DNA from: Kiritimatiellia bacterium
GTDB lineage: Bacteria > Verrucomicrobiota > Kiritimatiellia > RFP12 > UBA1067
Direction: 5' to 3'
DNA: 64,000 bases
Assembly (NCBI GenBank): GCA_017406465.1
Contig: JAFQYM010000009.1
Location: 8,221-72,220, forward strand
Shown: positions 9,616 to 49,199 of the stretch, in pieces
How the letters are laid out: each line of letters begins with the position of its first letter
Position numbering within the stretch: the first letter of the stretch is position 1
Notes under the pieces: model-generated
What the model was told of the DNA's origin: nothing
Database searches by the model: none
The model's input: the letters and a program-made list of their open reading frames with translations, nothing else
Position numbers and translations under genes: made by a program

Positions 9616-11343
9616 ATGAACACTAACACAAAGCTGATGGCTGCTATGATCGCGCTGGCCGGGATGTGCGGTCTTATCGGAATGACAACAATCCATGCTG
9701 CAGCGCCCGCACTGACGACGAGCCACGCCATCGCATTGACGGCAGGCGTGGCGATACTTGCCTTGATAATTACAGTGGGGCAGAGGCGGCTCTCTTCAGT
9801 GGGACTTACTGCAGCACTGTGCGTAGCCGTGCTCTGCCTCTGTTGCTTCATCGAGGAATCCGATTACGGCTTCAACCGGAAACTCGTGGCGTTCGGATGG
9901 CAAGTGATGGAACCGTCGTTCTTTATAACGCCGTCACTCGTATTGCTATTCGCATGGGCGCGGCGCAGCCATCAGGGGACGATTTTCTTTGCCACCACCA
10001 CAATCGCGGCCCTTCTCCTCGCGGTATACATGCCGAGACTTTCCGAAGCGACGCTCGTGCTTGTCCTCGCCGCCACCGTGTATGGCTTCGTTGTCCGCAT
10101 CCAGAGACACAAGCGCGTTCGTTGCCTGATTGCTGCCGCAATCGCTCTCTCGCCGTTTGTGGTCCGCGAGGTTCAGATGCAGATGTCTGGGCGCAGTTGG
10201 TTCAGCCCCAATTCGCTTATTGGCAGCTACACCGAATTTTCGTGGTACATGGTTGCCAATTCCCCGTGGATTAGGACATCGGAGCTTTCACGTACACTTC
10301 CTCCTATTGGCAGCATTAACGGAAATGTTCTCGGCTTCGCATCGTATTATTGCGGAAAGTGGACGCTCGTTACTCTCGCCTGTATCCTACCACTTCTTGC
10401 GATTTGCCTCATTGTCGCAGTTCGTCGCGCACGCACATCCTCGCAAAAGATCCTTGCCGTCGGCGGAGCGGTTGCTCTTATTGCGGAAATGATCTTGGGC
10501 GCTCTTCACTTCTTCTTCCTCATCCCACGCCACACGAGCTATGTGCCTTTCGTATCCCCGGACAACAGCTATACAGTCGCGTGTTTCGCGCTGCTTGGCC
10601 TTGTCCTCGCGACATTGCGCAAGGATTTGGGCAGCTCCGAGCGAATCAGGCACAAACGCAGATTCGACGCTATCGCATTCGGGACGATCCTTGTGGCAAT
10701 CACCATGGCCGGGGCAATGCTGCTTATTCACAACGAGTCACTTCCCCAGACAAAAATTGCCCGCAGGCTACCGGAAAGCGCGTCCGGTTTCTCATTCGAT
10801 GTCAAAAACGGCATACTGACAGACGACCTCGCAATTGTCCCTGTCAAGAAGTCCACTGGCATTGGAGAACCATCAATCGTCACTGCACTCGCGACCTTTC
10901 GTGACGGCAAGCGGATTTGGAATGAAGACATCAGCCACGAGCCGCCCATAGTCAATGCCAGATGCAGAATCCGCCCTGATGGTTGCATGGCGCTAGACTG
11001 CCGCGACCTTTATGAAGACGAATTCACACTTGTCTTCAAGCCACCGACTGGCGGCAGCACCACACCAGAATCATCAGTTACTGGCGAGCGATGGAGAATC
11101 TCCCTCGATCCGCAAGGGCACCTTGGGTGCACAAATCTCTGGACAGCCGCCCGCGTCACGCAAGCCATCTCCAAAAAACTAAACCTCGACTACGGCTTTG
11201 TCAGCAATGCGATGTCACGAGCCGACTCTCGCTACATAAAGCTGAAAATAACATCCGACCCTGACGAGGTAGCTTGCGCAAGGCGAAACCGACGCTTTTG
11301 GCGCCTCGTCATCGAAAAGGAATCTGCAATAGAGAATCAATAG
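9616..11343 (+). CDS. Polytopic membrane protein with a soluble C-terminal domain, hypothetical
   Basis: About 9-10 hydrophobic segments in the first 370 aa. RBS AAGGAGAG. No recognisable motif in the C-terminal 200 aa. Confidence 0.6.
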   Translation: MNTNTKLMAAMIALAGMCGLIGMTTIHAAAPALTTSHAIALTAGVAILALIITVGQRRLSSVGLTAALCVAVLCLCCFIEESDYGFNRKLVAFGWQVMEPSFFITPSLVLLFAWARRSHQGTIFFATTTIAALLLAVYMPRLSEATLVLVLAATVYGFVVRIQRHKRVRCLIAAAIALSPFVVREVQMQMSGRSWFSPNSLIGSYTEFSWYMVANSPWIRTSELSRTLPPIGSINGNVLGFASYYCGKWTLVTLACILPLLAICLIVAVRRARTSSQKILAVGGAVALIAEMILGALHFFFLIPRHTSYVPFVSPDNSYTVACFALLGLVLATLRKDLGSSERIRHKRRFDAIAFGTILVAITMAGAMLLIHNESLPQTKIARRLPESASGFSFDVKNGILTDDLAIVPVKKSTGIGEPSIVTALATFRDGKRIWNEDISHEPPIVNARCRIRPDGCMALDCRDLYEDEFTLVFKPPTGGSTTPESSVTGERWRISLDPQGHLGCTNLWTAARVTQAISKKLNLDYGFVSNAMSRADSRYIKLKITSDPDEVACARRNRRFWRLVIEKESAIENQ

Positions 11344-11378
11344 ACGACAAAACACCCGAGAAAGAATAAAAGACAGAA

Positions 11379-14348
11379 ATGAGAAAAATCATGTGCGAAG
11401 TGCAACCATTGTATTCAGAGGCCTACTCAAAAATCCTCGCTCTCGCGACTCGCTATGCAGCGGGGACTGACGACAACGTCCTCCGCCTCAAGCACCTTCT
11501 TGCGGCATTTCTCGACACTGATGCGGACATCTTTCGCGAGATACTCGGCGTCAAGCGGCTTATACGCCCGGAGAGCCTTTTATTCGAACCGAGAGAGCAA
11601 GACGGTGAGATCTTTCTCTCTTCTCAAGTCAACCGCATCCTCTCGCTGCACGGCGGGAGAATGGACGACGTCTCAGACGCGCTCGGACCCGTAATCGAGC
11701 TGGGGCTCCCGCACCTCGCGGCGGCAATGCTGATCAAACCCCGCGGCCCCGTACTCGAACTTCTCCAGCTAAATGCCATAGTGTCGGACAACGCTTCGTA
11801 CGTTGACGCCGTAATGGCCAGGGCACAAGAACTCGCCGACACGGAGTTTCAGAAGTCCTGCGCAAAGGAACGCGCAGACAGGATGAGGACGCTCAAGCAG
11901 ATAAAGACCGATCTCTCCAAAACTTGCCGCGGGCAGGACAAGGCCATCGAGGCGCTTATTGCCCATGTCGCAACAGCGATGATCGAACCGCCGTCGGCAC
12001 GAGGCTTCCGCCCCATCTCTGCGGCCTTTATTGGCGGCTCGGGAACGGGCAAGTCCATGATGGCCACGGCCTTCCGCGACGCATGGGCGCATGCGTTCGG
12101 CGGCGGAAAGCCAGACATCGTCGATATGAGCCGCTTCTCTGTCGAACAGCTCATAACTGAGATATGCGGACGCGACCCCTGCTGGAAAGACGGCGGGAAG
12201 GAAGGACAAGTCACCAGGCTCGCCGCTAAGTTCCCGCATGGCGTCATCATCCTCGAAAACATAGACAAGGCCCATCCAGGAGCCCTCGTGCCAATAGCGA
12301 ACATGCTAACCACGGGAAGGCTTGTTGATGAATTTACAGCAAAGGAGGTCTCGTTTGCAAGGAACATCGTAATCCTGACAACCAATCAGGGAACAACCTA
12401 CATCGAATCTGGGAAGTTCGCCCATCTCTGCTCGCGCAATGGCGGGACGATTCCACGGGAAAAGCTCGTCGAGGGCATAACCGCCGCGCTTGAGACGGAA
12501 ACGCCCGAGAAGGCCGGCATCCTCGCCGAAATCCTCAAGAAGGCGGACGTCCCCATCCTCTTCAAGCGCCATGACGTCCGTTCGATGTCTGCAATCATCG
12601 GCGACGCCATCGACAATACGCTCGCGCAAGTGAAGTCACTGTTCAAGGCGGAAATCGAGGCCGACCGAGAGAAGCTCATCGCCTTCTTCATCGAGACGCT
12701 CCAGAATCTTGATTCGGCGCACGGCATTGCACAGGTGATAGAGGACACCCTCGTCACGCGCCTTGAAAGGGAACTGCTGGACACGTCAGACCCAAAAGAC
12801 CTCGACGGTGCGCGAATCTCCATTGTCGTTGACGACCTTCCCGAGCTCGACATCCCGCCCGCGCTGAAATCCAATGGCGCGCTCTCGACGCTGGAGAAGC
12901 GCACGTGGGCCAGACTTCGGCAAGCACTGCAGCTCGAATACGACATCAAAGTGACCTTCGCCGACGGCGCAACTACATTGCGCATCACAAACCTCAGGCA
13001 CACTGTCATGCCGGCCATTGAAGATGCCGGCTGGTTCAGCGTCTGTCCGCCAAACACACGGCCAGAAGACCTCGTAGGGCTGGAAGCCGCATGGGCGCGC
13101 GTACGGAAGTTCCTGGCAAGCACACACAACAACAAAGCCGAGGGTTTCAAGCCCGACCACATTCTCCTGTATGGCCCCCCAGGCACAGGCAAGACCGCCT
13201 TTGCCAAGGCAATCGCCCACACGCTCAACCGCAGCTTCATCTGCGTCAATGCGGCAAAGTTCACGACATCCCGCAACGACAACCGTGCCGTCAGGTGGAT
13301 ACAGAACCTTTTCGCAACGGCGGAAAGAACGCAGTCCATAATCTTCATAGATGAATGCGACGCCATTGGCTCGCGGGAACATTCAAATGCCTCGCAGGCC
13401 CCTGTCATCAACACGCTTCTAACTCTGCTGGACGGGTTTGAGGACAGCAATGTACTCGTAATCGGCGCAACCAATCGGCCCGACATGCTCGACCCCGCCC
13501 TGACGCGCCCAGGACGCCTCCATACCCGAATCAAGGTTGATGTCCTGCGCAGCCCCGACGACCGCCTGAAGCTCATCGACATCTTCTGTCGAAAGGCAAA
13601 GCGCACTATGCCAGAAAAGCTAAAGACCCTTATCGCGCTGGCCACGGACGGATGGGCGCCGGCAAACATCCTGAGCGTCCTGCGCGAGATGTTCGACATC
13701 GCGGGCGACGAAACGCCAACGCGCCGCATGTTCGCGCAGGCCAGGAACACGGAATTTGCAGGCGAGGAAACGCAGCGCCCGCAGCTGACGGACGAGGAAA
13801 AGCTGCATGTGGCAACCCATGAGGCGGGCCACGCGCTCGTCGCCACCCTCCGCAAGCAAAACTGGTTTCAGGTAACGATAAACGGCTTTGCAGACACCCT
13901 CGGATTCCTCGAGCACCTGGACGACGGTTGCATCGGAAAATCCATGGAGAAACTCAAGGAGAAGATTGACGTCGCTCTTGCGGGGAACGCCGCAGAACGA
14001 ATTCTCGGAACGGTCTCAGAGGGGAGCAAAAGCGACTTCGTGTCCGCGACCGGCTACGCAAGGAGGATCGTCTGCGGCGGCTTCTGCGAAGGCGACGAAC
14101 TTGCCGTGACGCCAAACTTCGCCGAAGGAGGCCGTTACTGGGAGCGCATACGCCCCAAGGTAAACGCAATCCTCGCAGACCGGATGAAGATCGTGTCCTC
14201 TCTTCTCACAAAGCACAAGACCGCGCTGAAGATCGTCGCCAACGACCTCGTCCAGTGCGGGACTCTCTTCCAGGAAGACGTTGAAGCTGCACTTCACCGC
14301 AGGAGAGGCACCGTCGTCAAAGGGAAAGGAAGTCACGGCAATGAATAA
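11379..14348 (+). CDS. Chimeric soluble AAA+ protease with four domains and no transmembrane segment: Clp_N-like N-domain, ClpA/B D2-type AAA module, FtsH-type AAA module, M41 zinc-peptidase domain
   Basis: First domain: Clp_N-like LKHLLAAFL. Second: LKQIKTDLSKTCRGQDKAIEALIAHV…FIGGSGTGKSM…VIILENIDKAHPGALVPIANMLTTGRL…NIVILTTNQG, the ClpA/B D2 signature. Third: LLYGPPGTGKTAFAKAIA…IIFIDECDAIG…ATNRPDMLDPALTRPGRLHTRI, the FtsH AAA with SRH. Fourth: THEAGHALVA, the M41 HEXXH. Confidence 0.7.
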   Translation: MRKIMCEVQPLYSEAYSKILALATRYAAGTDDNVLRLKHLLAAFLDTDADIFREILGVKRLIRPESLLFEPREQDGEIFLSSQVNRILSLHGGRMDDVSDALGPVIELGLPHLAAAMLIKPRGPVLELLQLNAIVSDNASYVDAVMARAQELADTEFQKSCAKERADRMRTLKQIKTDLSKTCRGQDKAIEALIAHVATAMIEPPSARGFRPISAAFIGGSGTGKSMMATAFRDAWAHAFGGGKPDIVDMSRFSVEQLITEICGRDPCWKDGGKEGQVTRLAAKFPHGVIILENIDKAHPGALVPIANMLTTGRLVDEFTAKEVSFARNIVILTTNQGTTYIESGKFAHLCSRNGGTIPREKLVEGITAALETETPEKAGILAEILKKADVPILFKRHDVRSMSAIIGDAIDNTLAQVKSLFKAEIEADREKLIAFFIETLQNLDSAHGIAQVIEDTLVTRLERELLDTSDPKDLDGARISIVVDDLPELDIPPALKSNGALSTLEKRTWARLRQALQLEYDIKVTFADGATTLRITNLRHTVMPAIEDAGWFSVCPPNTRPEDLVGLEAAWARVRKFLASTHNNKAEGFKPDHILLYGPPGTGKTAFAKAIAHTLNRSFICVNAAKFTTSRNDNRAVRWIQNLFATAERTQSIIFIDECDAIGSREHSNASQAPVINTLLTLLDGFEDSNVLVIGATNRPDMLDPALTRPGRLHTRIKVDVLRSPDDRLKLIDIFCRKAKRTMPEKLKTLIALATDGWAPANILSVLREMFDIAGDETPTRRMFAQARNTEFAGEETQRPQLTDEEKLHVATHEAGHALVATLRKQNWFQVTINGFADTLGFLEHLDDGCIGKSMEKLKEKIDVALAGNAAERILGTVSEGSKSDFVSATGYARRIVCGGFCEGDELAVTPNFAEGGRYWERIRPKVNAILADRMKIVSSLLTKHKTALKIVANDLVQCGTLFQEDVEAALHRRRGTVVKGKGSHGNE

Positions 14349-14787
14349 AATGTGGGAACCAGAATTCGAGGACTGGTCAGAGGGCAGGGTCTTCCTGTCG
14401 TCATGCGAACTGTCGACGCAATGCTCGGCGCGGAACGAATACGGCGTCATGATGCAGGTGGGAACGGACGACAATCCGTATCCAGTGGATGCCGCGATAT
14501 TCTGGATAGACGAAATGCACCTCTATCTCCGCTATGACTGGGGTCTGTGGTACAAGATTTCCAACGACGACCCGGACAACTGCGCCAACCTCTGCAAAAG
14601 GACCTCCGCGACGCTTCTCCTATGCACAACCTCGTCAATCAAGCACCACGCAGTAAAGGTCTATCACATCGACAGACTCCCCAAAGAGCTGTTCGGGCAG
14701 GAGGAAAGTGACGCCTCAGCCGGACTCGAGGCGATCCAGCTCGACCTTGACTTTATTTCGTCGCCGGGAGACGGCGAAATCCCTTAG
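14341..14787 (+). CDS. Small hypothetical protein translationally coupled to the chimeric AAA protease
   Basis: ATG overlaps the upstream stop (aATGAATAAAATG). Trp/Cys-rich, with no known motif. Confidence 0.45.
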   Translation: MNKMWEPEFEDWSEGRVFLSSCELSTQCSARNEYGVMMQVGTDDNPYPVDAAIFWIDEMHLYLRYDWGLWYKISNDDPDNCANLCKRTSATLLLCTTSSIKHHAVKVYHIDRLPKELFGQEESDASAGLEAIQLDLDFISSPGDGEIP

Positions 14788-14921: not shown

Positions 14922-17381
14922 TCAAGGAATTCCGTCGAAGTGGGTTTTAAGGAATTTGACGCGGCGCTTGGCCAAATCCGTATCGTGATCCGCGAAATAA
15001 GCCGTCATATGGGGGCTCGAGAGGATCGCTTCGAGAATACCGCTCGCATCCGCCCGCCCAGCGAGATAGTGGGCGACGAAGGCGATGAAAAGCGCCCTTT
15101 CAGACTCGTCGAAAAACGCCCCGCCGACGATGTCGTCGACAACGTTCGTCTGTCGCGCATGGGTGCGCCCGGTGCGAAGATAGCTCGCGGACGCAATATC
15201 CAGATGCCAGGGGAACGGGAAGTCAAAATCGTGATTAGAGGCGATGAGGATGTGCGTGAAGAATGCGAAGAGGTCTGCTTTCCTCTCCCAGAGCGCGGCG
15301 TGCGCCACGGCAGTATGCACCATGAGGCGCGCGAACACGGCAATCATGACAAGAATCCGCGACTCGCCGGAAAGCTGGTTGTCTATCGTGCATGGGGGCT
15401 CAGATTTGAGCTTCGCCTTGAGTTCGTCCAGGTTGTCCGGCCAGAGTTCACGCTCTACGAGCTCCGCCTTTTCGGCCTCAAGTCGGGCAATCAATCCGCT
15501 GCGCATCTCTGGCGCACACGTCCAGGTGAGATTGGCGGCGAAGGCATGCTTGACATAGCGATTGGCGTCCATGTCGTGCAGGATTTCAAGCGCCTTGGCC
15601 ATAGACATGATCCAGCGTCCGAGGCAGATATCATCTCTCGTAAAGTAGAGATCCCAGAGCACGTCTGCCTTGTCGCAGACTTCCTTGAAATCAATGCCCT
15701 TGTACGAAATCGAGCTTACGGACGGGAATGGGGTTCGCTTCGGCGCCGCAAGAGCACCGTTCTTCTTCCGCCAGTTCTGCAGCCATTCTTCGCGTTCCAC
15801 CTGAAGTCCAGAGTTCCTTTCTTCAGCGCATTTTGCTGAAAGGCCTGCAAGATATCGCACTATCCAGTCGCGGAACTGCGGCGTCTCTTCGCCGGAGAAA
15901 GGCATCCGTTCCGGCAAGACGCGCACAGCACAGCGTTCCTCGTTCAAGAATGAAACTCGAGACATCGAGGCCTTTTTGTTCCCCGTAAGCACCTTGTCCA
16001 TCACCGCGTACTGGAGTGACGCAGCCCCCTCCAGCATAAGGGTCATCAGCGCATCGCGCACACCTGTCTTGCCGACCGATCCGGGCAGATCGGAGATGTT
16101 GCCCCTGTCGAGCACGCCACGCACGAACTGCACAGTCGAGCTCGCGTCATTGAAGGCTTCGCGGCGCTGCTGTTCCGTGTACTTTGCAACGACACAGTCG
16201 CGGTTGACATCACAAGCATAGACAAGTTCACGGAAAATCGGCATAACCGCCTCCCAAAATGCAGAAGCGTTGGCGAAGCCGCTCTTGTCAAGGTAGAAGC
16301 GGCTTTCAACAGGGCGTTCGCAGACGCCGATCTCCTTTAGCAACTTCTCCTCCTCGACTTGTGCGAATTCATCAGGGCGCGAAACGACCCAGTCGTAAAT
16401 CACATTTGCCGCCTTGAGTATCTTCTTGTGCGTCCCCAGCTTGCGAAGCTTGTTCTTGATCCGCACCATGCACTGGGCCACGGACTCCAGCATAACGCGC
16501 GTCGCGGCGGCATTTGTCGAATGTGCATCCGACTCCTTGAGTATAACGTCAGAGAGAACCGCCATCGCGACCCACTGGCGCTCGAAGCGCATATGCGTCC
16601 CAGTCACGTTCGGATCCATCGCGAATTCGTGTTCACGGGCGAATGAGAGCTGCGTAAAGCGGTCGTAGTGGTAGTACTTCAGGAGCGGATTGCGCTTTCG
16701 ATAGTCGTTATGGACATTGGAGAACCCCGAGAGCGGGAGCGTGACGTCGTCGCGTTCCTCGACGTACAGCCCAAGCTCGCCTGCGGCTACCGCTCGGGCG
16801 GCAAGCGCTAGCGCGGCAATTCGGCGGAGAGCGCCCTGTTCATCAGACTTGAGCGCCTCGTAGATGCGCAACTGGAGAAAGCGGTTCATTTCCCAGTCCA
16901 TTGCCCCCCAGACGCCACCCCCAGCGCGTTCGTAGAGGAACCTCTCGAACGCTAGCCGCAGCCCATGACCACGGCTGCGGATGTCTCTCGACGACACATT
17001 CCTCTTCGCCGCAAACCAGAAATCTGGCAGAAACGCAAGTGGTTCGAAAGTGCGCGCGAACGTCGTGAATCCGTTGGGGTTCTTCCTTATCTCGCCGTCG
17101 TTCGACTTCTTCGCCCGACTCAGAATGTAGATGTCGCGAAAGACTTCATACCACCGCATCAACGCGGTTGGCCGCCCGACCGACCTCCCGCCTTTGCCCA
17201 CACATGCAATATATTCTTCATGCGCAACCTCATTGAGCACCTCCACCTCCTGCGCGAGCGCCAATCGGCCACGAGAGGACTCAAACTTCTGGAAGAACGC
17301 CGCGACCTCGTCAGGGATGCTGTCGACAATCTCCTGGAAGCGAAGATGCGGTCTGCTACGCGATTTCAAAGTTTTTCCCAT
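14922..17381 (-). CDS. Hypothetical 819-aa protein, last gene of the giant minus-strand operon
   Basis: Long clean ORF, 24 nt after the upstream gene. No recognisable motif. Confidence 0.6.
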   Translation of the reverse strand: MGKTLKSRSRPHLRFQEIVDSIPDEVAAFFQKFESSRGRLALAQEVEVLNEVAHEEYIACVGKGGRSVGRPTALMRWYEVFRDIYILSRAKKSNDGEIRKNPNGFTTFARTFEPLAFLPDFWFAAKRNVSSRDIRSRGHGLRLAFERFLYERAGGGVWGAMDWEMNRFLQLRIYEALKSDEQGALRRIAALALAARAVAAGELGLYVEERDDVTLPLSGFSNVHNDYRKRNPLLKYYHYDRFTQLSFAREHEFAMDPNVTGTHMRFERQWVAMAVLSDVILKESDAHSTNAAATRVMLESVAQCMVRIKNKLRKLGTHKKILKAANVIYDWVVSRPDEFAQVEEEKLLKEIGVCERPVESRFYLDKSGFANASAFWEAVMPIFRELVYACDVNRDCVVAKYTEQQRREAFNDASSTVQFVRGVLDRGNISDLPGSVGKTGVRDALMTLMLEGAASLQYAVMDKVLTGNKKASMSRVSFLNEERCAVRVLPERMPFSGEETPQFRDWIVRYLAGLSAKCAEERNSGLQVEREEWLQNWRKKNGALAAPKRTPFPSVSSISYKGIDFKEVCDKADVLWDLYFTRDDICLGRWIMSMAKALEILHDMDANRYVKHAFAANLTWTCAPEMRSGLIARLEAEKAELVERELWPDNLDELKAKLKSEPPCTIDNQLSGESRILVMIAVFARLMVHTAVAHAALWERKADLFAFFTHILIASNHDFDFPFPWHLDIASASYLRTGRTHARQTNVVDDIVGGAFFDESERALFIAFVAHYLAGRADASGILEAILSSPHMTAYFADHDTDLAKRRVKFLKTHFDGIP

Positions 17382-17405: not shown

Positions 17406-19928
17406 CTATGTCAAGAACAGCGGGAACAAGTCACGTGCTTTCAGGAGCAAATCGTCCAATGCCTTGCCGTTCATATCCTTTGCTCCATGATCGACAAGCC
17501 AATCGATGAAATCGCGCCAATGCACCTTCAGGGCATCATAGGCTTCTTTGGACTCGTCTTTGGCAAGCCCCTTGGCGGCAACATAGCGATCCTTGACGAT
17601 CTGCGGCAGCTTCGCAGACATTCCGGCGATGCTTTTGTATGAATTCTCCGCCTGGATGTTCCACGTAAGCTCGATTTCGCCTTCGGCCCATGATTTATGA
17701 ACGATCTGCTTCGTGTGCTGGATGTAGTTTGTTCCGCCCTCATCGATGAACTTGCACTTGATCTCCTCGCCATTCGCCGTCGCGCGGTCGACAAGCACCT
17801 TCTGCGCCGCATCGATATTCCGTCTTGTCGCCCCGTCGTCCCAATCTCCGGGGACAAGGAGGCGCAGGTCGATGTCGAACCCACCTTTCAGCACGGCATC
17901 GTAGCCAAGCGACCCGCCGACGAAATACTCCGCTCCCGCGATGCCGCAGTCCTTCACGAGCCGTTCGCCCTCCTCCCGTGCAAGCGCCAGCAGCGCCGGC
18001 GTCTTCGGGTTGCGGAACTTCACCGCCATCCCCGCCGGATCGGCAACCGCATACTTCTTGTAGAATTCTTCAGGTGTCATAGTTATCTTATATGCTATTT
18101 GTTCTAGGAATGTCGGAGCCTCGGCAATCTGCGCCCTGTCTTTCTCCTGCGCTTCATCGTTGAAACGGTTGTTATAGTTCGCCAACTCGGGACGTATCGG
18201 ATTTGAATTGCAGTTCATCTTCACCTCGGCGATCCAACGGCGATGCGTAGCCTTTGCAAGAATCTCGCCGACAGCGCTCCCGATTGGCACGCCAAGCCCC
18301 ATTCCGCATCCATCGGCGACATCTACAAATTCCAACCCAACTGAATGGAAAAGCTCTTTGAATGAATCGACCCTCTGTTTGAATTTCTCTTTGCGGTAAA
18401 TCGACGTATATTCATTGTTGCCGACATCCCACTCCTCGCGATTCTTGAAAATTGCCCTTGCAAGCCTTTCCCTGCGCCAGGCATTGTATGCGGCGCCATT
18501 CTTAAAGCCGAAATAATACACGCTGTCGCATTCCGGCAAATCAAGGAAGTCTTCGTTGGGGCGGTTCACGCCGAATGTCTCGATATCCTGCCTGACATAT
18601 ATCCTGAAATCCGCCTTGCTCCCGTCAAGGAGGTCAAGGAGGTCTTTCATTATCTCCAATGCGGCCGTCGCATCCGTAATCGAGATCACGACGCTTGTCT
18701 GTGCGTCATCCGATACCAGGGCCTTTATTTTGTCCAAGAAGGCGGAACTGTAATATCCTTCTTTCACATCCTCGATTGACAGCTCGAGATGTGTGGTGGG
18801 CGCCTTAATCTCCGGATACTCGCGCAAGAACGCACGGCTTGGGGCCTCCGTGTTTTCTCCAATGACGCGGATTTCCGTTTTCACTTCGTCGCCGTAGTGG
18901 GCGACCCTGGCCGCTTCGACAGCCAATGCCTGCCCCATCTGCGAGAAGCCGACAATCACGACACGCACTGTTTTCTTGCAGTCATGATGCATAAACCGCA
19001 ATGCAGGATATGCCGCGCGGTCTTTTGTCGGCAACATCGCCCACAGCCGCTTGCTCCAATTGTCATAGAAGTTGAAGTAGTCAAGCAGCAACGGATAACT
19101 GTTGCTCGCCTTGCGGCTTCGCTTGAGACGACTGAATAAAAGGAAGGATGCAATCTTCACATGGGCAACAATCTGAGAATTCGGATCCGTGCATTTGCCT
19201 CCGAGCCGCTTGTTGAGCCTCGCCACGAGGTTCAACATGCGGGCATCATGCCCAGACTCCTCCGACTCGCCTACCAGATATATCTCTCGCGCCGCATCAA
19301 GGGAATAATTGGCAATGATGTCGTCCACATCATCGTAATGACCGCGGCAGACGGAAACATAGAGCTTTTCGTCCTTGCCGCAGGCCCTTATTAGCTTTCG
19401 GATTTCCGGCACGTCCTGCACGGTCACGACGGCCACTCGGCGCTCCAAGCCAAGCCGCCCCATGAATTTGTCGTACTCGCTGATTTCCTTTATCAACGTG
19501 GGGACATTGTCATCCCATCCCAGTATGATCGTATGCCCGCCCTCGCTTCGAAAGTCGTGATGTATCAGCCCGTTCCTTCTCCGTCTGCTGTAGTCCAGGC
19601 ATCGCGTCACAAGCGCCGAAAACAGCGCGCCGCTGCCGAGAAACCACGTAAAGGCAAACAGCAACGCACTCGCAAAAGCCGACACTCCGCCAGTCGCAAT
19701 CACCGTGTTTATGTCAAACAAGCTGGTGAATATCCATTTGAACACCCCCTGTTGACCATTTCTGCCAAAGGCAAACCCTAAAATGACCGCCAATATGGCA
19801 ATGCCCGCCAAGACCCACCAGAGATATTTGACAGGATTCCTCTCACCAGCCACCAAGAATCCAAGGAACCTACGGAGATTCCTTATCCTGGGCATTTCCT
19901 TAATAAAATCATTTAATTTGAAACGCAT
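17406..19928 (-). CDS. Membrane protein with a 2-TM pore-like N-terminus, two RCK (TrkA_N-like) Rossmann domains and a C-terminal Pol-beta-type nucleotidyltransferase domain
   Basis: TM1 LWWVLAGIAILAVILGFAF. Re-entrant and filter-like segment FTSLFDINTVIATGGVS. TM2 AFASALLFAFTWFLGSGALFSALV. RCK1 HTIILGWDDNVPTLIKEI. RCK2 RVVIVGFSQMGQALAVE. NTase hG[GS]x11DhDh: VGGSLGYDAVLKGGFDIDL. Confidence 0.6.
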   Translation of the reverse strand: MRFKLNDFIKEMPRIRNLRRFLGFLVAGERNPVKYLWWVLAGIAILAVILGFAFGRNGQQGVFKWIFTSLFDINTVIATGGVSAFASALLFAFTWFLGSGALFSALVTRCLDYSRRRRNGLIHHDFRSEGGHTIILGWDDNVPTLIKEISEYDKFMGRLGLERRVAVVTVQDVPEIRKLIRACGKDEKLYVSVCRGHYDDVDDIIANYSLDAAREIYLVGESEESGHDARMLNLVARLNKRLGGKCTDPNSQIVAHVKIASFLLFSRLKRSRKASNSYPLLLDYFNFYDNWSKRLWAMLPTKDRAAYPALRFMHHDCKKTVRVVIVGFSQMGQALAVEAARVAHYGDEVKTEIRVIGENTEAPSRAFLREYPEIKAPTTHLELSIEDVKEGYYSSAFLDKIKALVSDDAQTSVVISITDATAALEIMKDLLDLLDGSKADFRIYVRQDIETFGVNRPNEDFLDLPECDSVYYFGFKNGAAYNAWRRERLARAIFKNREEWDVGNNEYTSIYRKEKFKQRVDSFKELFHSVGLEFVDVADGCGMGLGVPIGSAVGEILAKATHRRWIAEVKMNCNSNPIRPELANYNNRFNDEAQEKDRAQIAEAPTFLEQIAYKITMTPEEFYKKYAVADPAGMAVKFRNPKTPALLALAREEGERLVKDCGIAGAEYFVGGSLGYDAVLKGGFDIDLRLLVPGDWDDGATRRNIDAAQKVLVDRATANGEEIKCKFIDEGGTNYIQHTKQIVHKSWAEGEIELTWNIQAENSYKSIAGMSAKLPQIVKDRYVAAKGLAKDESKEAYDALKVHWRDFIDWLVDHGAKDMNGKALDDLLLKARDLFPLFLT

Positions 19929-19958: not shown

Positions 19959-21986
19959 TTAGGTTTCTTTATATGTGAGTATCATTTGTGCAACGTACTG
20001 CGAAATGTTGCCATTTGACGCAACATGCTTTAGCGTGTAAAGAAGATTTGCCCAATCCTCGCAGAATGCATTCGCCTCCTGCCGCGTCTTGGCAAGGAGC
20101 AAAAATGGCGTCGCCGTTTTGTCATTATCACAGGCAAACAGCTTAAGGTCTTTCCACTCATCGCTATTGTTGCAGTACTTCTTGATACTATAGCTGAATG
20201 ACGTCACTTCCACATCCGAATGCCTCTTGCGCAGCCAATCAAACTGCGCGGACAGCACATTGCTTGTAAATGGATCGTCTTGCGTGAAGAAATCTTCCCC
20301 ACCCTTCAAAAACACATAGAACAAATTCAATCCTGGCGAAAGCCTGCAATCTTTGCGCATAGGGCTGGAATTGCCTGTAAATTGCGCATAATCTTGAATG
20401 AAAGCCGCAACGACGGCATTCGAGTTAAGCCCCTTCAATTCTCGTGCCCAATCGTTCCCATTTCCATCTTCACTCAATGACAGTTCCTTGTTCTCCAACT
20501 CGCGCCGCTTGTCATAGAACTTGAGAAATGCCAGTTCCTCCGCCCTCGCAAGCAGGGCAGATTCGTTCGTCCCCGGCGCGGGGCCACGCGAACTCCCCCT
20601 CTTGTCGGCAAAGATGGCATTGCGCAATGCCGAATTTTTCGCGCTCCATATCTTTATGATCCGCAAGAGCGCGATTCCAATGACAAGCGCAAAAGCCATG
20701 ACAATCGATAGTATGCTTACAAAACTAGTCTGGCCGAAAGCACTATTCAACTTGGCACTTTTGGCGGCGAGATATGGCACCAGCGTACAGCCGACAATCA
20801 CGACAAACATCGGCTCAAATCCCCCGCATACGACAAGCCAGTCTCCACCGGAGAGGCCAAATTTCTCCATGTGCTTCTTCTTCATCACTGCATCATGTAG
20901 CGAAACGCCAGCCAATTGACAAACTGGCGCGACAATGGTGCCTAACACAACGACAATCCAAACCAGCCAAAAACCGTTCGACAAGAAAAACGCCCTGAAT
21001 CCCTCGGCCTTCCCAAGCCAACCATCCATATACAAAACCCATAGATCGTCAAACTCTAGAACCTTCCCTGTCGCAGTGCCCACATGCCCAGCAAGCCAAT
21101 GAGAGCCAGACCAAAACAGATATGCCAAGGCCGCAGCCCCTGAGCACATAATCAAATTCATGACAAGAGCAGCAGTAAGCGCGGCCCGGAATTGCCTTCC
21201 TGCCATGATTTTATCATCCTCGGCCGACACAAGCAGATTGCCGTTTATCTTTGCAAAAGTGTACACGGCACAAATGAAGGCGACTAATGCAGCCCAAACG
21301 GTTATTCCGCCAAGATGCTCCCAAACCCCAACTGGACAACGGGCAGACAAATTCAATATGCCACTTGCAAACACCATGAGGAGCGAGCAAATCCAGACGA
21401 GCGCTTCCACTAACGAGAAATCCTTCGGAGATTTCTTCGGAAAAAGAATAATCAAAAGCAACCCCATATAATAGCCATAGCTGCGAAGCGCTTTTGCCGC
21501 TGTTTCGGATATCACGCTATTGTCAACGGCATCTTGCGCGTAATGCAAGATGAACTTCATCTCAAAGAATCTGGCAAAAAAATATCCAGTCGGCAAAGCA
21601 ATCAACCACCACTTATATTTCCAAATCTTGCGACACGTCACCTTTAGCATTATCCAAATCCATTTCGCATCCCCCTTCATCGCACCCCAAAGGAAAAGCA
21701 CTAACAGCCAAACACCCAGCAACCCAAGTGACACTATAGACGCTAGCAGCGTTCGCATGAAGACCGTGAATATCCGTTCGGCATCAATGATGGGATTGCT
21801 GTTCAGAACATCATACCCCAATGGGAGAAGCCCCCACAGAAGCGGCGCGACAATCGCGAGACAGAGCCATCCCAACCGGCTGAATGCCGCATGCCCCAGC
21901 ACCTTGATCAAGGCGCACAGATCAACTAAACCACCCCACACGTTGACACTTGGCGGCAGACGCAGCAAAGACATTTTCTTACTCAT
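19959..21986 (-). CDS. Polytopic membrane protein with a cytoplasmic C-terminal domain, hypothetical
   Basis: More than 10 hydrophobic helices. Start chosen at the Met whose ATG overlaps the phosphatase stop (ATGAGTAAG); the track start at 22022 is also possible. Confidence 0.55.
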   Translation of the reverse strand: MSKKMSLLRLPPSVNVWGGLVDLCALIKVLGHAAFSRLGWLCLAIVAPLLWGLLPLGYDVLNSNPIIDAERIFTVFMRTLLASIVSLGLLGVWLLVLFLWGAMKGDAKWIWIMLKVTCRKIWKYKWWLIALPTGYFFARFFEMKFILHYAQDAVDNSVISETAAKALRSYGYYMGLLLIILFPKKSPKDFSLVEALVWICSLLMVFASGILNLSARCPVGVWEHLGGITVWAALVAFICAVYTFAKINGNLLVSAEDDKIMAGRQFRAALTAALVMNLIMCSGAAALAYLFWSGSHWLAGHVGTATGKVLEFDDLWVLYMDGWLGKAEGFRAFFLSNGFWLVWIVVVLGTIVAPVCQLAGVSLHDAVMKKKHMEKFGLSGGDWLVVCGGFEPMFVVIVGCTLVPYLAAKSAKLNSAFGQTSFVSILSIVMAFALVIGIALLRIIKIWSAKNSALRNAIFADKRGSSRGPAPGTNESALLARAEELAFLKFYDKRRELENKELSLSEDGNGNDWARELKGLNSNAVVAAFIQDYAQFTGNSSPMRKDCRLSPGLNLFYVFLKGGEDFFTQDDPFTSNVLSAQFDWLRKRHSDVEVTSFSYSIKKYCNNSDEWKDLKLFACDNDKTATPFLLLAKTRQEANAFCEDWANLLYTLKHVASNGNISQYVAQMILTYKET

Positions 21987-22641
21987 AGATGCTCCTTTCC
22001 GTATAAGGTTCCGTGAGAACAAAATCGTTGTCGCAAGACATTTGCCCGCTACAGCTGTTCAACATTAGTGAAATATGGCAGTTCGGCAACTGTCCCATCA
22101 CGTCAAACCACCTGACATCCCAGTGATACCACCTTGCCAAGAAGCACTTGATCGCCGTGCCGTGGGAAACGATAATGATGTTTTCAGGGCAGTCGGCGCG
22201 ATCGAAGCGGCGAAACAACGAATCCATGAACAGCGCCATGCGATCATAGACATCCGCACACGATTCGCCGTCGGGGAAGCGGTAGAAGAAATATCCGAAC
22301 TGCTCACGGAAAGCTCGATTCGCATCGTTCTCGTCCGTCGGTGGCATATTGCCGTATTCCTGCTCGCGCAATTCTGGATCTTGATAGTCAAATACCGGCT
22401 CTCGCCCTATTCCCTCCAACATCGCATTCTTGGTCTGCTCCGCCCGCACATACGGCGAACTGAACACCCCGAACGCCCCATCGCCAATCAACCCCGCAAT
22501 ACGCCGCCCCGCCTCTCGCGCCTGCGCAACGCCCGTGTCCGTCAACGCAATCTTCCAATCCGGAATCTTCGCATAGACCTCATGATCTACGTTCGCTTCC
22601 GACTCGCCGTGCCGGAGAAGTATGATGCGCTTAGGGGTCAT
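21979..22641 (-). CDS. Histidine phosphatase (phosphoglycerate-mutase-like) family protein
   Basis: N-terminal LLRHGESEAN catalytic motif and a C-terminal His (SHG). ATGA overlap with the upstream gene. Confidence 0.8.
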   Translation of the reverse strand: MTPKRIILLRHGESEANVDHEVYAKIPDWKIALTDTGVAQAREAGRRIAGLIGDGAFGVFSSPYVRAEQTKNAMLEGIGREPVFDYQDPELREQEYGNMPPTDENDANRAFREQFGYFFYRFPDGESCADVYDRMALFMDSLFRRFDRADCPENIIIVSHGTAIKCFLARWYHWDVRWFDVMGQLPNCHISLMLNSCSGQMSCDNDFVLTEPYTERSIYE

Positions 22642-25600
22642 GAGGGGTTGTCTCCACCTGATTCAAGGCGCTCTATACAAATGTGAGCAATAGCCAAGAA
22701 ACACGCCGCTGCTTGGATATTATGATCATGCTTTAAATATATTTTAAAAGTATATAGACAACAAAGCGCCGTCGTAAGAGTATACATGTCCGGTGTCATT
22801 TGTTTGTCTTTGAGCGCCGCCCTCCGTATTCGTCTCAATATCTTATAAACCAACGTAAACCGTCTATCGTTGGCAATGTAATCAGGCTCATCTTCATTAA
22901 CAGAAAACATCGCGTCGCATATGTATTTTCTGAATATGCGCACAAGGCGTGCCGCATATCGCGCACTACCACCAACACCTTCATCATTCCATAGGTCATT
23001 ATCAAACAACAAACTGATCGTCGCAGAAAACATGACATTAAAATCATGTGCGATATAGTCGCGTCTTGTCCTTGCAAAATCAATCAACCACACATCCTTC
23101 TCAGGGTTGCCATTCTTCTCATCAAGCATTATATTGGCATAATTCATATCTCCGTGAATAATACCCTGCTGACAATTAAATCGTTCTCCTGTGGTATCCG
23201 CTTGTACCAATTTATCAATCCGACCTTTTTCATCAAGCACTAATTTTCCATACCCAGAGATGTTGACAACTCCATTCCGACCTCCTTTCAACAGATTCTC
23301 GATTAACGTAATTATGCATTGTTTACATCGATTATCAGGATCTCTATTGTCGGATGAATATTTAAATTTATTATCATCGCTCGTCCTATTCTGTTCATCT
23401 CCGTTATAAAACACAACGATACTTTTACTATCGGGATAGAGTCGTTCTTTAATTGACTTCAAGATTGCACCATCTAATTTAGGCTCCACCTCGCTATTCT
23501 TGACAATCGCATATAGCGTTTGCCCTGGCATCGGATGTCGATATTTAGCCACATGCTCGGCTACTACACCTTTTAAAACAACTGTAATCTTGGAATAATC
23601 ATTCACTCCTTGTTTATTCTGTATCTCGTATGCCTCAATTGCATGGCGGCCAACATCATCCTTGCACAAACCATGAAATTCAAAGGCCTTAATCTTTGGG
23701 GCCCTACGAACACAAGCCTCTTCCTGCGAAACAAAGCACTCTACATCATAATACTTTGCGATTGGCATTCGAGACAAATAGTTGCCGACAAAACCATTTT
23801 TCGACAGCACCTTTTCCCCTAATATATGGTTGGGGAAAGACGACATGGCTTTCTCAATCTCAAGATCAAATGAAATGCCATGTATCTTTGGCAATATATC
23901 GTCAAATATTGAATCAAATACACTCGCATACTTTTCATAGTCGCAACGCGCGAAAAACTTTATGTCATTAGAAAGCTTTTCTTTCATCGTTGACAAATTA
24001 TGCGAAGGGTCGTTCTTCCCCGCGAAGGAGTACACGATAGCCGAATTGTCTTTATCGACGACTTTGTTCTTCGTCTCGATTCTTCCACATTCATTTGCTA
24101 TATATGGCCGAATAAAACGGAAGTACCGTTCGAACTCGGTCATAGTATTAAATGCCGAATCAATCTTAACGATTACAGGACTTTGCAATGGTTTTTCATG
24201 GCCCTCAATTGTTTTCCATGCCTTGAATGTCACAGCGGAACTCATGCCGCCGCCCATTGGCTTGATATGTATTCTCTTTCCGGGCAGTTTCTCTAGTACT
24301 TTATAAGTGAGATACATGCGTTCCTGCTCATGTTCGCTACAAAAACTTGCACTCCGTCCAGTCTCAATGGAAAACATGTCTCGATCACACAATCCAAGCC
24401 GTCCCAATGAATCCCATTCCTTTCCCCATTTCTGAAACGAAAGCAATGAAATCATATGACGGGGCAACTTTTCAACATCCTCTTTCCTAATAAACCAATC
24501 TGCCCCAGCTGCAAACGCACGTGAAATATGCCCCATATCATCATATCTCGAATAGATGACAACAGGGATTTGCGGAAAGAACTGCTTAATATATTTTATC
24601 AATTGATACCCAGAAGGATCGTGGCCCGGGTGATCGGCAAGTCTTAGATCCAACAATACAAAATCATAAGATTTATGTGAATCACTTATTTGCCTGAACT
24701 GAGATATAGCCTGTCGAACAACGGTATTGTCACCAGGTATATCCGCCCGAACGGAGATTGGCTCAATAGCCATCACAGGTTTTGTCCTGGCCTCAATATC
24801 TTTCTTTGCATTCTCCGCATCATCATCAATTAACAATCCTGAGAATCTGATTACTGGCGAGAAATACGCGACTTGCGAACCGCCCGGTTCATAAATCACT
24901 TCCTCGCTGAATTTCTTACCACAGTCCTCGTCGTTCAAGTTGTTGCCTTTGACGAATAGACTTGATAATGACGCCATTTCACTCTCGAAAACGACTTCCC
25001 TAAGTCGCTTGAACAACGACTTACTTTCATAGCGTCTTCTCAACTGTTCCTTGTACTTTTTCCAAACACCACCCGGATCATCCTTCAGATTCTTAACATC
25101 GATTGTCCCGTCCGTTCCATGAACATCTTCATCCAGCATGCAAAACCGCCTAAATGCACCAGCCATCCAGTCTTTTATGTCTTCAGCTGACAATCCTTCT
25201 TTCAATTTCTCATCCGACCTCCACGCTTTCATGCGCAATAGCATATCCCGCACAAGGTCGACAGTCAATGCGCCATCCGTTTTATTCGCTTTTCCCTTCT
25301 CAAACCGCAGGACAAATTCATTAGGAATCGAGAAACCAGCCCCATCTATGACACGGACTCGCTTTCCATTGCCCATCGCATATTCAAAATCAACGAAGAG
25401 CGGATAAAATTTCTCAACGCCAGAAAGCTTATCTATTTCAAGAGGGCCGTACCCAAGGCCACGACAGGCCTCTTTAATAACTTCAGCAAGCTTACCAACA
25501 GTTGATGCCGCCGTAACTGGAATAATTAACAATGGCACTATAGTAGCCACCTGTCCATCATTCGTAAGGCTTGCAAAATCTTGTGCATCATATGAGTACT

Positions 25601-32430: not shown

Positions 32431-32452
32431 TTTTTGTTTTCCTTTCTTGTGT

Positions 32453-32719
32453 TCAAATGATTCCCAGCGCCTTTGCGCGCCACTCGCGGGCTTTGGACAG
32501 ATCCTGCGGGACGCCGCAACCAGATTCATAGCAGGATGCAAGCTGTCGCATGCAGTTCGCGTTTCCCAATTGCGCACCACGCATGAAGCACTCAATGGCC
32601 TTCTGCACGTCGACGACATTCTCGTTGGCGTCATCAAACAGGTATCGCATACCCGCCGCCCATTCGGCATCTCCATCGGTTTTGGGCGTGAAGTTCTTAA
32701 CCCAGTTCGTATCACCCAT
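32453..32719 (-). CDS. Sel1-repeat protein (88 aa)
   Basis: Two Sel1-like repeats: AAGMRYLFDDANENVVDVQKAIECFMRGAQLGN and MRQLASCYESGCGVPQDLSKAREWRAKA. RBS GGGAGG. Confidence 0.6.
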   Translation of the reverse strand: MGDTNWVKNFTPKTDGDAEWAAGMRYLFDDANENVVDVQKAIECFMRGAQLGNANCMRQLASCYESGCGVPQDLSKAREWRAKALGII

Positions 32720-34227: not shown

Positions 34228-34240
34228 CGCTTCGGTCTCC

Positions 34241-49110: not shown

Positions 49111-49199
49111 TTAAGGTTTCCTTTCTCCACCGCCTTGTCGTAGAATTTGAAGTTGTAGAAATACGCGACGTCCTTCATGTCAGTGTCTGGCCTCGGCCT
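49111..49199 (-). other. Second duplicated scar of the giant gene 3' end, forming a 23-codon mini-ORF (MKDVAYFYNFKFYDKAVEKGNLK) between paralogs C and B
   Basis: In frame after the stop of C. Its own stop overlaps the ATG of B (cttaaATGAaaaag). Confidence 0.6.

Follow-up and report, generated by a model that had tools for sequence, protein, structure and literature searches.

A predicted two-transmembrane RCK channel protein fused to a Pol-beta-fold nucleotidyltransferase in a rumen Kiritimatiellia bacterium

What does a protein do that carries a channel-like membrane part and a nucleotidyltransferase (NTase) in one chain, and is such a chain real? The question is raised by a stretch of 64,000 nucleotides (nt; the window) of contig JAFQYM010000009.1 from a Kiritimatiellia bacterium of the rumen (GenBank assembly GCA_017406465.1), in which an open reading frame (ORF) of 840 amino acids (aa) with an ATG start lies on the minus strand at 17406..19928. 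From the N- to the C-terminus, the parts of the protein were assigned by structure prediction, fold search, profile searches and a map of sub-domain hidden Markov models (HMMs) as a two-transmembrane (2TM) P-loop pore, an RCK1 domain, a second Rossmann domain (Rossmann-2) whose fingerprint is of the dinucleotide-binding type, a probable RyR domain, and an NTase with the Pol-beta fold. Scans of the 840-aa protein itself with Pfam, NCBIfam and PADLOC gave nothing significant, so all of the domain calls come from profiles of homologs and from predicted structures. A preliminary description, made from the letters of the sequence, had listed the pore, the two RCK domains and the NTase, all of which were recovered, while the RyR domain (aa ~548-616) had been overlooked. 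The reading that we favour, with a probability of about 0.4, is that the channel is gated by an adenine nucleotide, which the NTase tethered to it would make or attach, as the output of a conflict-type system.

The preliminary description had called the architecture unfamiliar from characterised proteins, and in the literature searched we likewise found no description of the fusion of a P-loop/RCK channel with a Pol-beta NTase, of the NTase family, of the three-protein module described below, or of the surrounding gene system. To our knowledge, there is no bacterial example of an RCK channel joined to an NTase. All four domain families, as well as the design of a signal-making enzyme paired with a membrane effector, are already known. 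If the favoured reading is right, the protein would be the first case in bacteria of an ion channel that has an enzyme for synthesising or transferring nucleotides built in, and would offer a compact and genetically tractable test case for the nucleotide gating of RCK channels.

Gene fusion and the three-protein membrane module

A word-indexed search found just five full-length relatives of the 840-aa protein. One of them (P0001) is the same protein of the same metagenome-assembled genome (MAG), annotated 69 residues too short; another (P0002), from a different assembly, shares 74% identity with the window protein, and three relatives at 44-48% identity stop about 220 residues early. The same type of search with the family alignment gained one protein. 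With the last 214 residues as the query, 123 proteins were found, nearly all of them free-standing proteins of 210-230 aa with identity up to 89%, and an exhaustive HMMER search gave 492 matches, about 400 of which were distant relatives of the N-terminal module (N-module) with lengths of 480-1100 aa. The sub-ORF of the NTase, 224 aa long, opens at a Met inside the long ORF (aa 617, nt 18080) and has the same length as the free-standing homologs. In the related locus L003, a 625-aa channel-like gene and a 224-aa NTase gene overlap by ATGA, and in the window the ATG equivalent to the start of that NTase stands in frame with the upstream channel ORF. Judged from these sequence relationships, the window protein is a true fusion of two normally separate adjacent genes.

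A 1-nt indel would be enough to join the ATGA-overlapping genes of this closest unfused locus, and the source is a MAG, so the possibility of a frameshift or assembly artefact in this one genome was considered. It was rejected as highly improbable, because P0002, which comes from an independent assembly, reads through the same junction in frame, because nine further clusters of fused proteins at 50% identity have differing junctions, and because the GGAGG- or GAGGA-like run usual upstream of free-standing NTase genes, resembling a Shine-Dalgarno sequence, has been lost before the internal ATG of the window. Compared with L003, the NTase part of the window is 92-93% identical and the channel part 48%, within one gene. 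The shift in GC content at third codon positions (GC3) at the fusion junction was modest (0.72 vs 0.64), and the real break lies further upstream, in the genes for the REC+TCAD9, giant and Peripla_BP_6 proteins described below.

The public annotation of the protein (P0001, "hypothetical protein IJG18_01850", Kiritimatiellae bacterium, 771 aa) begins at L70. It therefore drops aa 1-69 (nt 19722-19928), which contain the N-terminal helices and the first transmembrane (TM) helix, and the longer N-terminus is kept in the homologs.

The ORFs of 31 loci were classed by HMMs, and about 21 of these loci were distinct and had upstream sequence. In 17 of the ~21, a channel gene was fused to the NTase gene or stood immediately upstream of it, and in the exhaustive search all NTase proteins longer than 300 aa also carried the channel module, in nine further 50%-identity clusters whose junctions differ. 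A third protein, the multi-TM protein TM687 without known domains, takes part in the same arrangement. The gene order in L001 is channel, TM687, NTase. A TM687::NTase fusion of 851 aa was found in L004 (7568-10123), and TM687::channel fusions of 1104-1106 aa without RyR were found in L005 (6665-9985), L006 and L017 (3-1808). With the channel-NTase fusion of the window, TM687, channel and NTase are thus known in every pairwise fusion. In L019 and L025, an NTase gene stands beside TM687 and no channel gene was seen.

The nearest relatives of the fused NTases are mostly free-standing. The window NTase is 92.9% identical to the free gene of L003, and the NTase of P0126 is 87.5% identical to a free gene and at most 52% identical to the other fused lineages. 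These relationships imply at least 6-8 independent channel-NTase fusion events. Since all pairwise fusions occur, we infer, as Rosetta-stone evidence, that channel, TM687 and NTase act as one membrane complex. The recurrent three-way fusions are strong evidence of a specific membrane complex, whatever the mechanism. The fusion proposed in the preliminary description is real but not unique: the membrane module of three proteins exists in several permutations, of which this is one.

In the window, TM687 is encoded at 19959..21986 on the minus strand, with ATG 21986 as the likely true start. The listed TTG start (19959-22022) would make the gene overlap with that of the His-phosphatase, and the ATG, which follows "ggaaaggag", is likelier and gives a protein of about 675 aa. 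In L012 (10001-15008), a fused channel::NTase protein (883 aa, 28% identical to the window protein) was found together with a free NTase (217-223 aa), and a second TCAD9 protein follows the two NTase genes.

Predicted pore, gating ring and RyR domain

The N-module was modelled by AlphaFold as a monomer from an alignment of 38 sequences, with a predicted local distance difference test score (pLDDT) of 87.9 and a predicted template modelling score (pTM) of 0.86. The chain starts with K/R-rich, cytosolic amphipathic helices (aa 1-31, nt 19836..19928, on the minus strand as are all parts of the protein), which the model places at residues 5-11 and 13-27. They are followed by the outer helix TM1 (aa 32-53, nt 19770..19835), assigned by the model and by hydropathy and aligning with S5/M1 of Kv, KcsA and NaK; by a re-entrant segment (nt 19695..19757) made of a pore helix (aa 58-71, with the conserved W65) and the filter-equivalent F71-D72-I-N-T-V76, assigned by the model and by alignment; and by the inner helix TM2 (aa 82-118, nt 19575..19685), which runs on into the cytosol and was assigned by all three means. 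The protein has two hydrophobic segments (aa ~32-53 and ~82-108), whose flanks are positively charged, with 9 K/R against 3 D/E in aa 1-35 and 5 K/R after TM2. The outer loop between the two TM helices contains 27 residues, and this is too short to cross the membrane twice; the model shows two short helices in it, at 58-71 and 73-78. The predicted topology is therefore N-in/C-in, with two TM helices around a short re-entrant pore helix as in the channel superfamily, and the layout of TM1, re-entrant segment and TM2 given in the preliminary description was borne out at nt ~19575-19835.

A profile of the TM region (A8), built from 37 sequences, was run against the PDB sequence set. Tetrameric cation-channel pores, such as Kv1.2, Kv4.2, KvAP, KcsA, NaK and Shaker, made up 59 of the 60 best PDB sequences, and the best match was Kv1.2 (E 0.0026) in the correct register of pore helix and filter. 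The family sequence "wwillhffDPGNl" aligned on FWWAVVSMTTVGYGD of Kv1.2, and the alignment to the Kv, KcsA and NaK pores identified D72-I-N-T-V76 as the filter-equivalent of the window protein. The family motif at this place is W-x6-hh-D-P-G-N, in which the D is present in 86, the P in 66 and the G in 81 of the 141 family members, and the pore-helix Trp is kept in 83. In TM2, column 94 aligns with the hinge Gly of Kv1.2 S6 and is Gly in 98 of the 141 members and Thr in the window, and G100 is conserved in 119.

The K+ signature T[VI]GYG was found in the TM region of none of the 141 members, so that K+ channel would be the wrong name for the protein. The preliminary description had rightly recognised a re-entrant segment, but its filter-like TVIATGG (aa 75-81) lies three residues downstream of D72-I-N-T-V76, and even the four closest homologs do not conserve the ATGG. 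A K+-channel filter was rejected on account of the unconserved ATGG, the missing signature and this offset in register. From alignment and model, we conclude that the 2TM part is a pore of the channel type, probably one that conducts cations without selectivity for K+.

The pore is followed by two Rossmann-like alpha/beta lobes, which the model places at 132-285 and 320-473, and then by a helical C-terminal part. RCK1 (aa ~120-299, nt 19032..19571) was delimited by Foldseek and the family profile; it starts with G120..H132-TIILGWDD and has no GxGxxG motif. RCK2, or Rossmann-2 (aa ~300-482, nt 18483..19031), was delimited by AlphaFold, Foldseek and column counts. The two motifs named in the preliminary description, HTIILGWDD (aa 132-140) and RVVIVGFSQMGQALA (aa 322-336), each open one of the lobes, which in the model stand consecutively and directly after the inner helix, as in a tandem-RCK gating ring. 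In the Foldseek search of the PDB, the best matches for the soluble part were LjCASTOR (E 2.5e-8), MtDMI1 (3e-7) and human Slo1 (3e-7), followed by Slo2.2. The TM-scores of the fold matches were modest (0.35-0.46), and the alignment with full-length human Slo1 spanned 629-741 columns. The family profile also matched the RCK1 sequences of DMI1 (E 3.6e-8) and CASTOR (1.5e-7), and a relative annotated by its source as a POLLUX/CASTOR ion channel was matched at 2e-15. Among 66 relatives, Pfam found Slo-like_RCK in 32, RyR in 24 and TrkA_N in 13. Similarity to pores and RCK domains, on which the preliminary description had staked its reading, was therefore present by profile as well as by fold. The first 616 residues are homologous to tetrameric P-loop cation channels of the CASTOR/POLLUX/Slo type.

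Within RCK1, G137 is invariant (138 of 138) and H132 is found in 128 of 138 sequences. The RCK1 domains of MthK and Slo likewise have no glycine motif, and that of MthK starts with H-x-h-I-h-G-W-D/S, similar to the window. MthK, Slo1 (BK) and Slo2 also share the layout of a pore followed by RCK domains, and both RCK domains are in one chain in the window protein and in Slo, unlike in MthK. The window protein differs from these channels in having neither a K+ selectivity filter nor a voltage-sensor domain.

Rossmann-2 carries G327-F-S-Q-M-G332-x-A334 in the window and G327-x-[GNS]-x-M-G332-x-A334 in the family, conserved at 92% or more, and 127 of 138 family members have the acidic residue D357 at the end of beta2. 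By its sequence pattern, this is a classic dinucleotide-binding fingerprint, and the Rossmann-2 domains of relatives gave weak matches to F420_oxidored, Sacchrp_dh_NADP and TrkA_N. A nucleotide, and not Ca2+ or Na+, is the probable ligand of the ring in the window protein.

The closest likeness is to CASTOR, POLLUX and DMI1, the Ca2+ channels of the plant nuclear envelope, in which a 2TM P-loop pore is also followed by tandem RCK domains in one chain. In addition to being the best fold matches and similar in RCK1 sequence, they share with the window protein the lack of TVGYG and an acidic residue in the filter region. In CASTOR, the filter reads AD265(S/A)GNHA and its Asp is essential; the channel selects for Ca2+, and a construct of 2TM plus tandem RCK is functional (PMC6697748). 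The identity, however, is only ~10-13%, plant CASTOR has four TM helices, and its AD(S/A)GNHA contrasts with D-I-N-T-V in the window and D-P-G-N in the wider family. CASTOR has Ca2+ sites where the window protein has the dinucleotide-binding fingerprint of Rossmann-2, and the window protein adds the RyR and NTase domains. In P0271, an ADAG sequence aligns 7 residues downstream of D72, so that D72 may differ in position from CASTOR D265.

These features bear on the alternative that there is no channel at all and that the 2TM part anchors or oligomerises a Rossmann/NTase complex serving a housekeeping function of Kiritimatiellia, for example the modification of envelope or polysaccharide. An anchor of this kind would fit the lack of a K+ filter and of any Ion_trans_2 match in 66 members. 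It is at odds with a TM-only profile that matches cation-channel pores almost exclusively and in the correct register, and with an N-module that aligns with full-length Slo1 and with the gating rings of CASTOR and DMI1; moreover, the CASTOR pore conducts without TVGYG, and the conserved pore-helix Trp, acidic filter residue and TM2 glycines are hard to explain in an anchor. We regard this alternative as rather improbable, and its genomic side is taken up with the surrounding system.

Between Rossmann-2 and the NTase, a helical linker (aa 483-547) and the predicted RyR domain (aa ~548-616) occupy nt 18081..18482, as delimited by the family profile and a sub-HMM. The family profile A3 matched RyR repeats with E 6.5e-25 and 3NRT of B. 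thetaiotaomicron with 2e-12; with the window protein alone, no Pfam RyR match appeared even at E<=10. RyR/R12 domains bind ATP analogues and ligands of the cyclic ADP-ribose (cADPR) type through H-x-x-W and Asp contacts (PMC13232231). In the family, E-H562-x-R-W565 and D597 are conserved, and the window keeps H562, R564, W565 and D597 of the contact residues. At column 579, where 92 of 105 have the phosphate-binding His, the window has Arg (R579). As in animal ryanodine receptors, a domain of the type binding adenine nucleotides or cADPR is joined to a channel for cations, here a predicted one. In comparison with the RyR domains of animal receptors, 3NRT and phage RyDEP, the window protein has one repeat and not a tandem pair, and its GW-YG loop is degenerate. 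Pore, RCK1 and Rossmann-2 are universal among the NTase-linked channel partners and RyR is present in some; in L011, the NTase comes directly after Rossmann-2. An obligatory role of RyR as the sensor of the NTase product was rejected, since most NTase-linked channel proteins have no RyR.

The nucleotidyltransferase domain

The NTase domain (aa 617-840 plus the stop codon, nt 17406..18080) corresponds to the 224-aa free-standing protein of related loci. Its catalytic strand-turn-strand, V670-GGS-x11-D685-I-D687-L (nt 17868..17918), was recognised by its invariance and by alignment to the CCA enzyme; the segment is VGGSLGYDAVLKGGFDIDL (aa 670-688), and its coordinates, nt 17868-17918, had been given exactly in the preliminary description. 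In the numbering of the sub-ORF, used below, the catalytic residues are G55, G56, D69 (D685) and D71 (D687). The AlphaFold model of the domain, built from a 66-sequence alignment, reached a pLDDT of 95.2 and has the alpha/beta fold of NTases. Foldseek matched it to Cid1 (1e-6), OAS1, an archaeal CCA-adding enzyme, TUT7, GLD-2 and CdnC. The closest folds were those of GrpB, Rel, CdnE, Cid1, OAS and CCA enzymes, and all matches were below 18% identity. A C-terminal lobe of about five helices (aa ~151-223) follows the core, and by profile the GGS..DxD strand-turn aligned with the GS..ExD motif in the CCA-adding enzyme of A. fulgidus. From the predicted structure, the C-terminal domain is certainly an NTase of the Pol-beta type with a helical second lobe, and in fold comparison it is about equidistant from several Pol-beta sub-families.

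Only 6 of 66 NTase members matched Pfam NTP_transf_2, and only weakly, so the domain represents a new sequence family of NTases. The two-lobed enzymes, namely Cid1/TUTases, OAS, class I CCA enzymes, CdnE, RelA/SpoT and GrpB/UPF0157, share the NTase core, the hG[GS] and DxD motifs and the helical C-lobe with the window domain, which is much smaller at 224 aa and has no single closest sub-family among them. The word "minimal" in the preliminary description did not hold, because the domain is two-lobed with 224 aa and has no HEPN partner. The label MNT was rejected in view of this size, the two lobes and the two-lobed NTases among the best matches; no HEPN domain was found in the neighbouring genes, and neither PADLOC nor Pfam gave an MNT match.

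Conservation of the active site, which the preliminary description had proposed to examine in orthologues, was found to be strict. All 136 of 136 NTase domains share G55, G56, D69 and D71 (the GG and DxD of the motif), as well as R73, N141, Y148 and K185; conservation is 98% or more at H122 and Q143, and 90-93% at D113 and E114. This pattern shows that the active site is under strict purifying selection and, since the active-site residues are invariant in all of these domains, argues for an active NTase over a decayed pseudoenzyme. The family, which counts over 130 members and in which the active-site residues do not vary, is a new one among Pol-beta NTases.

An active enzyme held at the ring could also work without a diffusible signal, by adenylylating or uridylylating the gating ring or TM687, much as GlnE/GlnD act, and so setting the activity of the channel. 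The NTase has repeatedly been fused to one or the other membrane partner, and such proximity is expected of an enzyme and its substrate; conserved Tyr, His and Lys residues surround the active site, and the His_Phos_1 phosphatase of the system could undo the modification. The conserved dinucleotide-binding site of Rossmann-2, on the other hand, suggests sensing of a non-covalent ligand, and we consider covalent control of this kind unlikely.

Surrounding gene system and proposed role

As the preliminary description had stated, the 840-aa ORF is the penultimate gene of a tightly packed row on the minus strand, which runs from 32715 to 14922. The gene order is conserved among loci with NTases only 44-53% identical: a Peripla_BP_6 protein, a giant protein of 1500-1900 aa, a REC+TCAD9 protein, a His_Phos_1 phosphatase, the variable TM687/channel pair, the NTase and a protein of ~819 aa, with Lon_C and other genes sometimes standing between the last two. 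In the window, the Peripla_BP_6 protein is encoded at 31279-32715, the giant protein (1678 aa) at 26222-31258, the kinase-like REC+TCAD9 protein (1195 aa) at 22638-26225 and the His_Phos_1 phosphatase at 21979-22641; the domains were assigned by Pfam, and these upstream genes have the same synteny in L003-L027. The last gene of the operon (14922..17381) encodes P819, an 819-aa protein without known domains that is 70-86% identical across loci. PDB sequence searches with P819, TM687 and the giant protein gave no match. A convergent operon on the plus strand (9616..14787) encodes a 575-aa membrane protein with a weak FtsW/RodA match, a 989-aa double-AAA+ M41 protease similar to FtsH, and a protein of ~150 aa. 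In L005, L009, L012, L025 and L029, this operon keeps its place beside the system, and on this gene order it may be part of it.

The genes of the system diverge at two speeds. The phosphatase, P819, the AAA-M41 protease and P168 are 64-86% identical between loci, except for the most divergent L029, whereas the giant protein, the REC+TCAD9 protein, TM687 and the channel are 23-54% identical between the same loci. The NTase is 44-92% and the channel part 23-48% identical between loci. GC3 is ~0.40 in the genes for the Peripla_BP_6, giant and REC+TCAD9 proteins (28-54% identical), compared with ~0.70 in those for the phosphatase, the NTase, P819 and the AAA-M41 protease (64-92% identical between the closer loci). 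The two-speed divergence together with the GC3 split looks like cassette replacement or diversifying selection, and it marks a new multi-gene system in rumen Kiritimatiellia with a sharply bipartite evolutionary rate. Among 185,579 species-representative genomes, the NTase family was found in 4, all of them Kiritimatiellia MAGs from ruminant guts. A scan of viral contigs found no NTase relatives, and the rest of the window consists of ordinary chromosomal housekeeping genes.

A role in biological conflict, i.e. defence, is suggested by the rapidly diversifying half of the system and by TCAD9, a domain of conflict systems that was named for its association with vWA-MoxR-VMAP systems. No vWA or MoxR domain was found at the locus, and TCAD9 in the 1195-aa neighbour is the sole element shared with the vWA-MoxR-VMAP systems; PADLOC models found no pair of CD-NTase and Cap effector as in CBASS; and no gene of the locus encodes a TIR domain as in Thoeris.

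According to the favoured reading, in which the tethered NTase controls the channel, the NTase held at the gating ring would use a nucleoside triphosphate for one of two reactions, the synthesis of an adenine-containing nucleotide or the nucleotidylylation of the ring. The dinucleotide site of Rossmann-2 would sense the NTase product, helped by RyR where it is present. The gating ring would then open a cation pore that is not K+-selective and is lined by a ring of D72, and the ion flux or depolarisation would be the output of the surrounding system, with its receiver and kinase-like protein, His-phosphatase, giant protein and P819.

Several observations weigh against this reading. The similarity to pores is weak, with individual E-values of 0.003 to 0.4, the same 66 relatives include none that matches Ion_trans_2, and the filter is without the glycines of K+ channels and differs between the subclade (D-I-N-T-V) and the family (D-P-G-N). 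Gly replaces the Rossmann-2 Asp357 in the window (G357-E358), and by sub-HMMs RyR is missing from most NTase-linked channel proteins. In the NTase, the third catalytic carboxylate may be D113/E114 at the end of beta3, which are conserved at 90-93%, or its place may be that of the invariant N141 in beta5, where Q143 also stands; and since the fold search singled out no sub-family, the synthesis of a signal is indistinguishable from RNA tailing or protein modification. The core proteins of the system match no PADLOC defence model. Finally, the system is chromosomal, stands in stable synteny with the operon of the FtsH-like protease and is confined to one bacterial class, and a lineage-specific housekeeping or envelope role would fit these facts equally well. 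The alternative in which the 2TM part is an anchor without a channel draws on the same side of the evidence: the lack of PADLOC matches, the stable chromosomal position beside the AAA-M41 protease and the weakly FtsW/RodA-like membrane protein, the restriction to one class and the absence from viral contigs.

The contrast in evolutionary rate could also mean that control runs in the reverse direction, with the channel module sensing membrane potential, Ca2+/K+ or a cellular nucleotide bound by the RCK ring and switching on the NTase, as the output, through a change of conformation. The NTase would then make a diffusible signal for the receiver-kinase, the His-phosphatase or P819, or would tail or modify a target. 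A conserved NTase beside a channel that is swapped and diverges fast has the appearance of a constant enzyme with a variable sensor, and in accord with this, the NTase stands by TM687 with no channel gene seen in L019 and L025 and is accompanied by a second, free NTase in L012. The kinase-like protein and the phosphatase of the system could process a nucleotide product, and every RCK ring known so far senses a ligand (PMC6697748). A sensor anchor, however, would have no need of the pore-helix Trp, the acidic filter position and the TM2 glycines that are conserved among the 141 members; membrane proteins are outputs rather than inputs in the known signalling immune systems; and the giant and REC proteins are already better candidates for sensor and regulator. 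We hold reversed control to be a less than likely explanation, though one to be taken seriously.

A bolder form of the favoured reading, in which the NTase gates the channel, is a self-contained "chanzyme" that is opened by the local nucleotide of its own NTase and provides the depolarising output of an undescribed conflict system of about ten genes. In this system, a hypervariable cassette (the giant protein, receiver-kinase, multi-TM protein and channel) would sit on a conserved backbone (the phosphatase, NTase, P819 and AAA-M41 protease), and the wider family would be a general class of nucleotide-gated channel effectors that work with TIR enzymes elsewhere. In its entirety this proposal is doubtful. 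If it were true, the sensing of nucleotides by RyR domains on channels would be linked from bacteria to the ryanodine receptors of animals. A pore joined to a nucleotide-metabolising enzyme is found in the eukaryotic chanzymes TRPM2-NUDT9H and TRPM6/7 kinase and in the K+-channel-adenylyl-cyclase fusions of alveolates, which differ from the window protein in pore class, in enzyme fold (Nudix, alpha-kinase and class III cyclase) and in kingdom.

Evidence from the wider 2TM-RCK-RyR family points in the direction of nucleotide signals too. Among its distant members, P0255 is fused to a TIR domain and P0219 to a SLOG domain. A 2025 preprint gives experimental validation of Thoeris type X, an anti-phage system that pairs a TIR enzyme with a predicted ion-channel effector (bioRxiv 10.64898/2025.12.03.692087). 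This system resembles the window locus, as do the TM effectors of CBASS and Pycsar, in that an enzyme making nucleotides is encoded beside a channel-like membrane protein; the window differs from all of them in using a Pol-beta NTase of a new family in place of a TIR, CD-NTase or cyclase, in the covalent fusion, and in the size of the system, which has about ten genes instead of an operon of two. The TIR, SIR2 and STAND neighbourhoods of distant members, which are anecdotes and not statistics, fit a family that receives nucleotide signals made by enzymes. The family, elsewhere fused or adjacent to TIR, may represent widespread signal-gated channel effectors, and it gives context both to the recognition of ligands of the ADPR/ATP type by RyR domains and to the ion-channel effector of Thoeris type X.

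Three loci with distant members were observed. In L032 (3074-11855), the member stands beside SIR2/TIR and nSTAND1 genes; in L034 (29-7293), it is near a TIR-containing protein of 1173 aa; and in L035 (7712-10049), it comes after a stand-alone RyR protein of 101 aa, with a His_Phos_1 gene nearby.

Two further regions of the window were recorded. A YhcG/DUF1016 PDDEXK nuclease with a DUF4357 tail is encoded on the minus strand at 32845-34374, between an ABC transporter operon of the LivFGMH type (34241-37494) and the Peripla_BP_6 gene of the system, and it matched the PADLOC candidate PDC-S02 with E 1e-120. At 48136-55653, also on the minus strand, a second patch of low GC content (0.47-0.49) contains three ORFs without Pfam matches and, after them, a protein of 1472 aa that carries bacterial TSP3 repeats.

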